A stretch of 64,000 nt of DNA from Octopus vulgaris. Lineage: Eukaryota. Under the pieces are notes generated by a model, which saw only the letters and a program-made list of their open reading frames with translations, had not been told where the DNA came from and made no database searches. Location of the stretch: contig OX597832.1 in assembly GCA_951406725.2 (NCBI GenBank), forward strand, positions 12,772,001-12,836,000. The letters run 5' to 3'. The translations under genes and the position numbers were made by a program. Every line of letters starts with the position of its first letter. Positions within the stretch are counted from its first letter, which is position 1. Below are positions 1-60,403 of the stretch, one piece after another.

Positions 1-726
1 GTATGCATATGCATGTATAGTAAGAGAGAATAAGAGATTCATATTGATCTAAACATAGAGCCTGAGGGAAAATTGTATTAAAAATTTCAATTACAAACGA
101 ACATAAATTTATTTGCGTAAAATTTGGTGAAAAATATCATTGAATGTGAGTGCAAAATGAAACGAGGAGATAAGAATAATATGATCTTAAAATTAGGCAA
201 ATTTTGATAAATTAACCTAAAAAGTATTACCGCCTTATTGGATCGAAATGAATAGGACACAAAATCGTGCACATATATATAAATGATAAGATTATAAACA
301 TGCGTAATACACAAATGTGCGTCACACAAACATATGTAGAACGAAATTTGGTATTTTAACCAGCGGATGCAATTTTATAATCGAAGACGTATAATTGGCT
401 TGCGGTACGTAAAACATTTATATACGTACATTTAGTATGTTTTCAGCTGCTTCTCATAAACTGAAAGTTTTATATTAAAATCTCCGTTCGTATTTACACT
501 CCTTTATATACTTTAGGCATGAATCCATGTAGATGTAACATACGTTCATGTGTGTCTGTGCCTATATATAGGAGTGGCTGTGTGGTAAGTAGCTTGCTAA
601 CGAACCACATGGTTCCGGGTTCAGTCCCACTGCATGGCATCTTGGGCAAGTGTCTTCTACTGTAGCACCGGGCCTACCAAAGCCTTGTGAGTTGATTTGG
701 TAGACGGAAACTGAGAGAAGTCTGTC

Positions 727-774
<48 letters not shown>

Positions 775-777
<3 letters not shown>

Positions 778-1371
778 CAATATAGGGTGGCAAAAAATTT
801 CGTGGAATTTATTTGCCACCAGCGGCCTAGTGGGAAAAAATTAAATAGTCATAGACCATTTATAAGTTCAACATCACAATCAAGGAATGGCCATAATAGG
901 CCATTCACCCACTAGAAATAACAGCCAAAGCTTCAACCGCAAAATAACATTAATTCCGCAAACCAGGAGAAAATTAAAAAAACATTTACCCTGTAATTTC
1001 TTATACGATGCACCGTTTCATCTATTGTTTAATGGTAAACTAACCTGATTAAATTAAATCAAGCCAATCTTCCATAGGCCGATAGATTCGTCAGTAAGAA
1101 ACAGCCAGATCCGAGCAGATATTATCACGAGGCACCTCTATCCCTGCCTCGGCAATATCTGACCTAAAATTTTCAAATCATCGCACTCGCGATTTAATCA
1201 GGTTAGTTTACCATTAAACAATAGATGAAACGGTGCATCGTATTAGAAATTACAGGGTAACTGTTTTTTTAATTTTCTCCTGGTTTGCGGAATTAATGTT
1301 ATTTTGCGGTTGAAGCTTTGGCTGTTATTTCTAGTGGGTGAATGGCCTATTATGGCCATTCCTTGATTGTG

Positions 1372-1373
<2 letters not shown>
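775..1373 (-). mobile_element. Non-coding Penelope-like element end (pseudo-LTR) with inverted partial duplication, inserted in (TA)n
   Basis: (TA)n on both sides; 873-1054 is the reverse complement of 1192-1373 (182 bp, 2 mismatches); contains a hammerhead. PLE assignment is from architecture, not protein homology. Confidence 0.75.
997..1101 (-). ncRNA. Type I hammerhead ribozyme, PLE-type
   Basis: Minus strand reads TTTCTTA-CTGACGA-ATCTAT...ATAGAT-GAAA-CGGTGCATCG-TA-TAAGAAA: 7-bp stem I, intact core, long stem II, near-palindromic stem III, GUA cleavage triplet. Confidence 0.88.
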
Positions 1374-1425
<52 letters not shown>

Positions 1426-1675
1426 CTGTGTGCGTGTGTGTGTGTGTCTGTGTTTCTGTGTGTCTGTACTTGTCCCCCTAGCATTGCTTGACAACCGATG
1501 CTGGTGTGTTTACGTCCCTGTCACTGAGCGGTTCGGCAAAAGAGTCTGATAGAATAAGTACTGGGCTTACAAAGAATAAGTCCCGGGGTCGATTTGCTCG
1601 ACTAAAAGCGATGCTCCAGCATGGCCGCATTCAAATGACTGAAGCAAGTAAAAGAATTAAGAGAGTGCATATATA

Positions 1676-4329: not shown

Positions 4330-5940
4330 CAGATGACTATACAGGATGAGTGATTTAAAACTATACAATTACGAGGGTCAGGTCCAATTATACTGCTCTA
4401 CACATTGGGCATCTGCATAGACGAGGCGTGGATGAATTTAAGGGCACACATCAATGAGTAATTAAGGCAATATGTCCGCGTTTCCGAACAAATATAACAA
4501 ATATATAGAATGATGTTTAATCTGCCGGGGTATGCAGACGTTCTCTTCACTCTCTCCCGTTGTGAATGCAGAGAATTAATCGGTCCTAAAAATGCTTTGC
4601 TAAAAGAAATCAAAATATATAGAAAATTGGGAGAAGAATATATATGTTAGTATGTCAAATTTAGCGGGTTGTATTCAACGATATTATCTCCCTTCTACAT
4701 GATATCAATAAAAATATATTCTAATCTTCAGTGCAAGTACGAAGAGAAACTTCAATGTATATTATACTGGATTCATAAAGATAATATTTTCATACATGTT
4801 AGATTGTAAACAGGCCACAGATGTCTACACCAGTATTGCAAGCAGTAGAAATAATAGTTTCTATTATAGGCACAATGTCAGATGTTTTTGGGGAGGGGAC
4901 TAGTCGATTACATCGACCCCAGAATTTCAGAGGTACTTAATTTATCGACCCAGGCGGAATTTGATCTCAGAACGTAGCCACGGGCGAAATACTGCTAAGC
5001 ATCAATGTTGATTTAACGGCTAGAAAATCTGTTATCAAATTTGATAACAAATTTTGGGCATCGTAAAGATCAATCTGAAAGCATTGATATATCTATGGGG
5101 TCATCAGACTCTACTGAAATAGCTGCTTTGGTCGGTTTTTATATTCTATCAGAAATGGCTGACCATTTCCCGTATATCATCGGTGGTTTTTTTATCACAA
5201 CTGTCTCTTCTACCTCCATAATATCTCTAATCAAAAAAAGTTAATAATTATCTTGTCAAATTCTTTAGTAATATGGGCCTTAATATTATCTTCGATAATG
5301 GTAGAACAAAGGTTAATTTCCTTGACGTAGCTTAAATGCAGTCTTATATTCCCCATACCATAAAACTTTACCCAACGTAAAATGCATCATTATTTTCAAT
5401 AATAACGCTGGACTTGCTTCAACGGAATTGAAACGGCGTATCGCGAATCATATTTCCATATTTTAAGTACAGTCATAAACGTAACTCTACAGGTCTTATT
5501 AAACTAATTTGTGATTCTCAAACACTTTTCTCTTGATTCGGATATTTTATCAAGATCACTTCCCAATGAGAAAAGGAAGTCATTCTGTCCTCTTTGTACG
5601 CACGAACAACTATTTATCCTCTTTTCTAAACCTACATTGGTCAACACCAATAAAGAAGTATTTACAATAGTTTACATTGGGCAAAACACCCTTTCTATTC
5701 AAATAATATCTACCTCTTACCTAATAACATCTGCATCTTAATATTTATTCTTGCTTACCATACCTCCTATACTTTCCTTCATTTTTCTTTCCATCTATCA
5801 TTTATTCCCTATTTACTTTTATCTCAATTTCTCCTTTAATGCTCTTTCTCTCTTCCTTCTCTTCTTCTCTCGCCCTATGACATCAAATTTCTTAACGGCA
5901 ATTTTAAAATTACGAGGGTTCCATATACAACTTTGCTTTC
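4330..5940 (+). mobile_element. Decayed Naiad-type Penelope-like retroelement (RT and GIY-YIG remnants)
   Basis: Broken frames give IDISMGSSDSTEIAALVGFYIL, GLNIIFDNGRTKVNFLDV, AGLASTELKRRIANHIS, RNSTGL and CPLCTHEQLFILFSKPTLVNTNKEVF, in the order expected for Naiad RT then endonuclease. Ends approximate. Confidence 0.85.
4855..5002 (-). mobile_element. SINE family C (Meta/MESC-like core), partial, nested in the PLE
   Basis: GTCGATTACATCGACCCC...GGTACTTAATTTATCGACCC...GCGAAATACTGCTAAGC matches the 37639-37874 copy. Confidence 0.85.
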
Positions 5941-59633: not shown

Positions 59634-60403
59634 GTCCTTTCTGCTATAAGCACAAGGCCTGAAATTTTGGTTGGAGGAGCAAGTCGTTTACCTCAACCCC
59701 AGTACTCAACTGGTGCTTAATTTATCGACCCCCGAAAGAATGAAGGGCAAAGTCTAGCACGGAGAAATCTGAACTCGGAACGTATCGGCATACGAAATAC
59801 CTATTTCTTTACTACCCACAAGGGGCTAAACACAGAGAGGACGAACAAGGACAAACAAACGGATTAATTCGATTACATCTATCCCAGTGCGTAACTGGTA
59901 CTTATTTAATCGACCCCGAAAGGATGAAAGGCAAAGTCGACCTCGGTGGAATTTGAACTCAGAGCGTAGCGGCAGAAAAAAATACCTATTTCTTTACTGC
60001 CCACAAAGGGCTAAACACAGAGAGGACAAATAAGGACAGACAAATGGATTAAGTCGATTATATCGACCCCAGCACGTAACTGGTACTTATTTAATCGACC
60101 CCGAAAGGATGAAAGGCAAAGTCGACCTCGTCGGAATTTGAACTCAGAGCGTAGGGGCAAGCGAAATGCACATTTCTTTACTACCCACAAAGGGCTAAAC
60201 ACAGTGAGGACAAATACGGACAGACAAACGGATTAAGTTGATTATATTGACCGCATTGCGTAACTGGTACTTATTTATTCAACCCCGAAAGGATGAAAGG
60301 CAAAGTCGAGGACGGTGGAATCTGAACTCGGAACGTAGCGGCGTACGAAATACCGCTAAGCATTTCACCCGGTGTGCTAACGATTCTCCCAGCTCGCCGC
60401 CTT
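59634..60403 (-). mobile_element. SINE family C multimer: one head, three 185-bp units and a terminal body with a different tail
   Basis: Units at 59801-59985, 59986-60170 and 60171-60353; single 5' head 60354-60403; degenerate TSD at 59619-59633 and 60405-60419 (12/15 identical). Confidence 0.93.

Follow-up and report, generated by a model that had tools for sequence, protein, structure and literature searches.

The analysed window is a 64,000-nt stretch of genomic DNA, and the feature under study occupies its positions 775-1373, where two arms lie head to head inside the (TA)n tract of a host repeat (Table 1). The complementary parts of the arms (873-1054 and 1192-1373) measure 182 nt each and are 99% complementary. 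Our pairing alignment agrees with an earlier note on this DNA in placing two mismatches between them, one of which falls in stem I of a predicted hammerhead ribozyme (TAAG vs TTAG). They lie at 1002/1244, in the 3' strand of this stem, and at 985/1261, and both are private to the plus arm of the element. The same note had described a 98-nt 3' extension of the minus copy, (TA)n runs meeting both 3' ends, and a plus copy that starts within the stem II insert and retains only the 3' half of the ribozyme, all of which we recovered, the 5' core (CUGANGA) being absent from the plus arm. The minus copy, said to carry the full hammerhead, does hold a complete predicted one as judged by motif and covariation, but it is not a whole unit: it corresponds to positions 1-418 of a 484-nt monomer, 66 nt short, and the window copy is therefore sub-monomeric. 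The element was also rightly described as devoid of an ORF, as it contains only short frames of 42 and 53 aa, and the other overlapping ones, also short, read through microsatellites.

Table 1. Coordinates of the features of the window locus and of the TA-targeting Penelope-like element (PLE) family found in the same genome.
Feature	Position	Strand	Remarks
Host repeat, left part	571..727	+	Abundant repeat, targeted at its internal (TA)n(TG)n tract
(TA)n target, left side	728..775		24 copies
Long arm, with tail	775..1191	-	Monomer 1-418; ends at site B
Tail between sites A and B	775..872	-	98 nt
Hairpin B	820-786	-	Within the 98-nt tail
Outer stem	834-827, pairing with 915-908	-	3' strand (834-827) lies in the tail
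Hairpin A, then site A	873..906	-	Hairpin 906-885; site A at monomer 319, window 873
Predicted type I hammerhead	996..1104	-	
Predicted stem I	5' strand 1104-1095; 3' strand from 1003	-	
Predicted core	CUGACGA 1094-1088; GAAA 1019-1016	-	
Stem II insert	1087-1020	-	68 nt
Predicted stem III		-	A single firm pair, capped by a palindromic loop
Predicted cut	after 1004	-	GUA triplet
Head-to-head junction	1191..1192		Two 5'-truncated arms; blunt, zero inserted bases
Short arm, tailless	1192..1373	+	Monomer 138-319; ends at site A; ribozyme 3' half only
Right side of target tract, (TA)n followed by (TG)n	1372..1467		(TA)n part 1372-1397
Host repeat, right part	1468..1650	+	
TA-targeting PLE family	L184:1119-1195 and 5832-5908		
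TA-targeting PLE family, ORF	L183:2842-5184		

Composites with the same flanks, collected from fetched loci and from the rest of the window, have only TA/TG repeats between those flanks in 38 of 39 cases, which identifies the window element as a clean insertion into an internal (TA)n; the 39th (L268) holds a different insertion of the same superfamily. Target-site duplication is unreadable inside (TA)n. None of the contigs examined spans the whole stretch, as would be the case for an assembly or long-read foldback artefact, but the two arms have two mismatched positions and distinct fixed ends, the design recurs with other junctions at dozens of further loci, and the flanks match the empty form of the host repeat, all of which makes such an artefact most improbable. 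The same low probability applies to an ordinary MITE, since arm lengths ranging from <100 to >2800 nt are at odds with fixed TIRs, and the inversion point, which the earlier note had proposed to check, varies between loci and excludes this class. The locus is thus a real, young and non-autonomous copy of a hammerhead retroelement, and an ordinary short member of its family that shows no sign of host function.

A similarity search of the genome that contains the window (a 2.8-Gb animal assembly) yielded 135 matches in the best 40 of 1428 candidate places, many of them arranged head to tail with a 484-nt period. Units are 484-491 nt long, have a GC content of 37% and form head-to-tail arrays of up to 9.2 units; the longest Met-started ORF across three joined units encodes 39 aa in sense and 53 aa in antisense orientation. 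At 60 mapped loci, an arm longer than one 484-nt unit was found in 36, and an arm with two or more cut sites in 26. The family is, by sequence criteria, a non-LTR retrozyme, that is, an ORF-less tandem repeat of a ~485-nt unit with one predicted type I hammerhead in each. An exact 20-mer of the ribozyme 5' half matched the genome 106 times, six of these matches falling outside the listing; of its 21 extra sites, 20 were retrieved. Pattern searches returned 3029 matches to the ribozyme 3' half with at most two mismatches (8 in the control), 1049 further hammerheads with stem II inserts of 36-65 nt (2 in the control) and 3186 occurrences of the tail motif (0 in the control), figures that are motif counts, not copy numbers. 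Family sequence is also covered by assembled contigs from sequencing runs under three organism labels. At least five further subfamilies, ~62-73% identical where aligned, were observed at L201-L230 and L261-L290; all have the A/B end modules and a long stem II whose apex is (TTTAA)n.

Rfam returned no hammerhead family match in the window either at the gathering threshold or at E 10, and the hammerhead call therefore rests on motif and covariation. In 22 aligned sequences from several subfamilies the core is invariant, save for the N of CUGANGA and H17. Stems I and III are paired in 98.3% of cells, with two-sided changes at 7 of the 11 pairs (5 of 6 in stem I and 2 of 5 in stem III), as compared with 30-50% pairing in slid controls; these cells count related sequences rather than independent events, and most aligned rows derive from a search pattern constrained in the core and in part of stem III, with stems I and II free. 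The stem II insert measures 44-68 nt and closes on a helix in 20 of the 22 sequences, the helix itself differing in sequence between subfamilies. Such compensatory changes across divergent subfamilies support the predicted hammerhead structure.

Two observations speak against activity of the predicted ribozyme. Its active monomer fold (-28.6 kcal/mol) is predicted to lie 2.6 kcal/mol above the more stable free fold (-31.2 kcal/mol), and most of the Xenopus retrozymes assayed as dimers (8 of 9) are described as uncleaved in vitro in 10.64898/2026.07.22.740005. A dimer fold via the palindromic stem III may be possible, and axolotl hammerheads with a weak stem III are reported to perform better as dimers (PMC7229834). 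A hammerhead pattern combining a short stem II with the window-type stem III had 0 matches in the genome, and relaxing stem III gave 151 (47 in the control), which belong to other families; one of these lies beside a PLE frame unrelated to the window element. Separately, short-stem-II hammerhead-like motifs with stem III CACTGCAGTG were seen at L248-L260, several of them clustered near the start of contig C3.

Mapping of arm ends at the 60 loci, the first 40 of which were the best matches to the tailed window copy, distinguished 32 simple foldbacks, 22 single arms and 6 complex arrangements. The 3' ends cluster at two points of the monomer ~100 nt apart, namely position 319 (site A) and positions 416-428 (site B), the exact base of the latter being blurred by AT-rich sequence. 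TA runs adjoin 88 of 93 of these A/B ends. Among the 32 simple foldbacks, 28, including that of the window, pair one arm ending at A with one ending at B, none is A/A or B/B, and four have one off-site end. Pattern searches added 15 further foldbacks, some from subfamilies ~62-73% identical, and all 15 were A/B. One arm per site was hence the arrangement in every one of the 43 simple foldbacks whose two ends are canonical, an outcome with a probability of ~1e-13 under independent 50:50 choice. Sampling by similarity to a tailed copy, with one later sample drawn by the tail motif, favours B ends and would accordingly raise the number of B/B pairs, which were never seen. An automated count of ends returned, besides the 43 A/B pairs, two A/A cases (L104 and L052). 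L104 turned out to be a single arm mis-called via a palindromic hairpin. L052:2743-5086 is rearranged, carrying the same inversion junction (monomer 49/367) twice in opposite orientation, and holds the only A/A piece seen.

Sites A and B each lie 11-17 nt behind a hairpin, and TTGATT precedes each of them in the window subfamily. Of the cells in the helices of these end modules (hairpins A and B and the outer stem), 92.5% are paired, and both sides have changed at 8 of 31 pairs. The existence of both single-arm types and the signs of later homogenisation in arrays might suggest that an A-type and a B-type copy inserted independently into the same TA tract, or that a satellite array was later rearranged. 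However, independent insertions predict A/A and B/B pairs as well as TA between the arms, whereas all 43 pairs are A/B and joined directly, and the arms have subfamily and private variants in common; we regard this origin as scarcely credible.

The family structure, the fixed ends, the A/B pairing, the variable junctions, the TA target and the structure conservation are seen directly; the enzyme, twin priming, cleavage and circularisation are inferred. The element is a short foldback copy of a retrozyme, probably pasted into (TA)n in trans by a Penelope-like RT/endonuclease via twin priming. A Penelope-like enzyme, probably a dimer, would nick both strands of the TA tract, whereupon one nicked end would serve as primer for reverse transcription from site B, and the other as primer at site A, ~100 nt upstream of B on the same or a sister RNA, the template being an uncut multimer or a circle. 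The two cDNAs would stop at variable points and then join head to head, often through short microhomology, while extension of one strand only would leave a single arm ending at A or B. In L1 twin priming, two target nicks each prime cDNA and give rise to a head-to-head inversion; the position of the second primer is variable, and the arms are not known to overlap. In the retrozyme family, by comparison, both putative priming sites are fixed and the arms overlap, as the template is repetitive.

Biochemical work on a purified PLE describes cleavage and extension of both strands, a bias towards AT-rich DNA, two internal start sites that define the tail and a predicted dimeric protein (PMC11167929), all in keeping with twin priming in trans. 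In the same assays the start site showed no strand difference, which counts against the model, as do the A/A piece of L052 and the lack of a sequence-related autonomous partner among the sampled loci.

Inversion points vary freely among loci, and 86 truncation points are uniformly distributed over the monomer (KS p 0.65), and the mapped 5' ends accumulate neither at the cut site nor at A/B. None falls within 5 nt of the cut (~2 expected if uniform), which argues against run-off at a cleaved 5' end. Indeed, 91 of 107 arms cross the predicted cut site, and arms run on into upstream units, as would be expected of an uncut multimeric or circular template. Arms of the same locus differ at 0.37% of sites and those of different loci at 1.49%, that is, partners are four times closer, and 8 of 41 locus-private variants are present in both arms, although such shared variants could also stem from later gene conversion. 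Junction overlaps of at least 3 nt occur in 13 of 32 cases, as against 6% expected, an upper estimate because these are BLAST overlaps in which mismatches are allowed and counts run high. Equality of arm lengths found no support (Spearman 0.01; 6 of 28 near-equal, permutation p 0.48).

These data also bear on whether a single priming event would suffice, with subsequent resolution at the DNA level in which the endonuclease removes the tail, at site A, from one of the two ends. This reading includes variants in which both arms first end at B, or in which one strand is primed and template switching or antisense self-priming supplies the second arm; taken jointly we consider it unlikely. It can draw on the literature, where EN-mediated resolution is invoked for tails (PMC8557442) and antisense-template self-priming for head-to-head repeats (PMC3846280); trimming would likewise give one tailed end per foldback, and a few very short foldbacks (L268 and L277) have their junction in hairpin A. 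Yet single arms end at A about as often as at B (10 and 12, respectively), which points to A as a start site by itself, and tail ends map onto the two RT start sites reported in vitro (PMC11167929). Moreover, neither arm is contained in the other at 14 of 28 A/B loci, so that one arm would not have been copied from the cDNA of the other; this argues for two RNA-templated syntheses, as twin priming would entail.

Within loci, 105 variants of the arrays are fixed and 142 are variable; 24 are present in several units though not in every one. The arrays at L037, L047, L056, L063 and L110 are mosaic or display variant patterns of period 3 or 4; L056:2873-7350 comprises 9.2 units with a variant period of 4, and L063:2660-6183 7.2 units with a period of 3. 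For these two, multimeric templates and later block duplication are alternative explanations. Patterns of this kind run counter to a single monomer circle as sole template, which predicts none of them, and the template may have been a circle or a multimer. More speculatively, viroid-like circular RNAs with long-stem-II hammerheads might parasitise a dimeric Penelope-like enzyme, both subunits of which would roll round one RNA and write two back-to-back arrays, the two duplicated hairpin-TTGATT modules serving one subunit each and the helper recognising RNA structure rather than sequence. We hold this whole scheme, taken together, to be possible but doubtful.

A search for GIY-YIG families, in which 150 of 6136 candidates were scored, uncovered TA-targeting PLE families in the same genome. 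The main one is young and has many intact 781-aa frames with RT and GIY-YIG domains and a Neptune-like Cys linker (CxxxxCxxC); its upstream frame ends at a T-rich junction, and it has a 36-nt tail. Its hammerhead-like motif reads UUGAUAA in place of CUGAUGA, which we take to be a U3-A8 variant. Judged by the last base, all seven head-to-head pairs of this 781-aa PLE among the first 100 of 737 listed exact end matches are of the tail/no-tail type and so obey the end rule seen in the retrozyme, two of the seven having been checked in sequence. The 781-aa PLE and the retrozyme family differ in their 3' ends, the former with its 36-nt tail, and have zero detectable sequence in common. An autonomous element with family-related sequence was found neither in 50 GIY-YIG loci (30 short and 20 long, partly from the same sites) nor flanking 90 loci with hammerhead and tail motifs. 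A profile of 43 units matched only a fragment at L153 within the fetched GIY-YIG loci. This 53-nt nucleotide match to the monomer was discarded as a link to a helper, for it is a separate TA-flanked fragment. Another PLE family, seen at L154 and L198 downstream of the GIY-YIG frame, has a minimal type I hammerhead with a 4-nt stem III; its ends are flanked by TA, and a tail of ~40 nt is present at some of them.

The earlier note had left the choice between a truncated PLE insertion primed on both target strands and a non-autonomous, retrozyme-like family. Both hold and describe a single thing, a non-autonomous retrozyme family whose insertions look primed on both target strands; a truncated autonomous PLE is unsupported, as none of the sampled copies is joined to, or extends into, an RT/GIY-YIG ORF. 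Reading the locus as the truncated 3' end (pLTR) of such an autonomous element, not as an independent non-coding one, gains some appeal from the end signature, which is the same as in PLEs, and from the resemblance of Xenopus retrozymes to pLTRs described in 10.64898/2026.07.22.740005. However, upstream of monomer position 1 copies run into the previous unit rather than into an ORF, and the arms that exceed one unit (36 of the 60 loci) reach up to 9.2 units. Probed by tblastn with the 781-aa frame, 30 superfamily hammerhead loci gave a single match, which lies on the other strand and outside the insertion by ~1 kb, and 30 tail-motif loci gave none. For the sampled copies the truncated-PLE reading is largely refuted, and we rate it as very unlikely for the locus.

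The parallel drawn earlier with Naiad/Chlamys elements is doubtful. The passages of PMC8557442 that deal with them describe these elements as lacking canonical hammerheads, and the one ORF of a TA-targeting PLE that we examined belongs to the Neptune-like type with a C-terminal endonuclease. Chlamys MRC1 of the same source does resemble the window family in being non-autonomous, with head-to-tail insertions in multiple copies and a pLTR structure; it differs in that it resembles its autonomous partner at the 3' end, whereas no partner was found here among the sampled loci. Most Chlamys elements are likewise described there without a canonical hammerhead, while the motif here is a canonical type I one (CUGANGA/GAAA/NUH). 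Furthermore, Naiad/Chlamys elements encode an ORF with an N-terminal endonuclease and the window family has none, only the (TA)n bias being common to both.

Inverted pLTRs, tails of 30-40 bp and a TA bias are features of PLEs (PMC8557442; PMC3846280). The likeness to EN+ PLEs, represented by Poseidon PAc (PMC11167929) and by the pLTRs of PMC8557442 and PMC3846280, extends to partial tandems, an inverted 5'-truncated copy, a single-end tail, AT-rich targets, two internal RT start sites and a hammerhead upstream of the end. The retrozyme family differs from them in having no RT/GIY-YIG ORF and in a tail of ~100 nt instead of 30-40 nt. In the PLE papers the tail is said to lie "often" or "optionally" at one end, whereas the one-arm-per-site rule was counted here, in 43 of 43 cases.

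PMC7229834 describes non-LTR retrozymes in coral, mussel and axolotl, and 10.64898/2026.07.22.740005 connects them with PLE pLTRs on the basis of co-occurrence and phylogeny. Like the family studied here, these metazoan elements consist of tandem, ORF-less, low-GC units, each containing one type I hammerhead whose stem III is weak and palindromic, and mobilisation by PLEs has been proposed for them (PMC7229834; 10.64898/2026.07.22.740005). The ~485-nt unit compares with RNAs of 170-400 nt in PMC7229834 and with a consensus range of 51-972 bp in 10.64898/2026.07.22.740005. Against the descriptions in these two sources, the long stem II insert, the near-strict targeting of (TA)n and the foldbacks with two fixed ends set the present family apart, and the main text of PMC7229834 contains none of the words "inverted", "target site" and "microsatellite". 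Cleavage and circles were demonstrated for the retrozymes of that paper, whereas for the window family both are putative. In the literature covered, we found neither the long-stem-II form, nor a ~100-nt tail, nor a counted one-arm-per-site rule for retrozymes, though the family may be recorded elsewhere under a different name. The element behaves like a PLE insertion and falls within the sequence criteria for retrozymes; it belongs neither to the autonomous PLEs nor to the Naiads or MITEs.

How retrozymes enter genomes, and how the inverted pLTRs and one-end tails of PLEs form, are treated as open questions in PMC8557442 and 10.64898/2026.07.22.740005. The family offers an RNA substrate that is small and defined and has two mapped start sites, along with a rule that can be counted in the genome, which together render the twin-priming model testable with the existing type of in vitro assay, and it adds thousands of hammerhead motif matches of a kind missed by Rfam here. 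If the speculative scheme, in which both subunits roll round a circular RNA recognised by structure, proved true, the one-arm-per-site rule would become a general explanation of PLE tails and inverted pLTRs.

As anticipated in the earlier note, RNA reading through the window element is predicted to fold into a 182-bp hairpin that would take up the 3' half of the ribozyme, and this putative dsRNA looks like a by-product of the insertion geometry. Elsewhere in the window, a 184-bp unit similar to a dispersed repeat in other loci is present in 3.7 tandem copies at positions 59681-60354.
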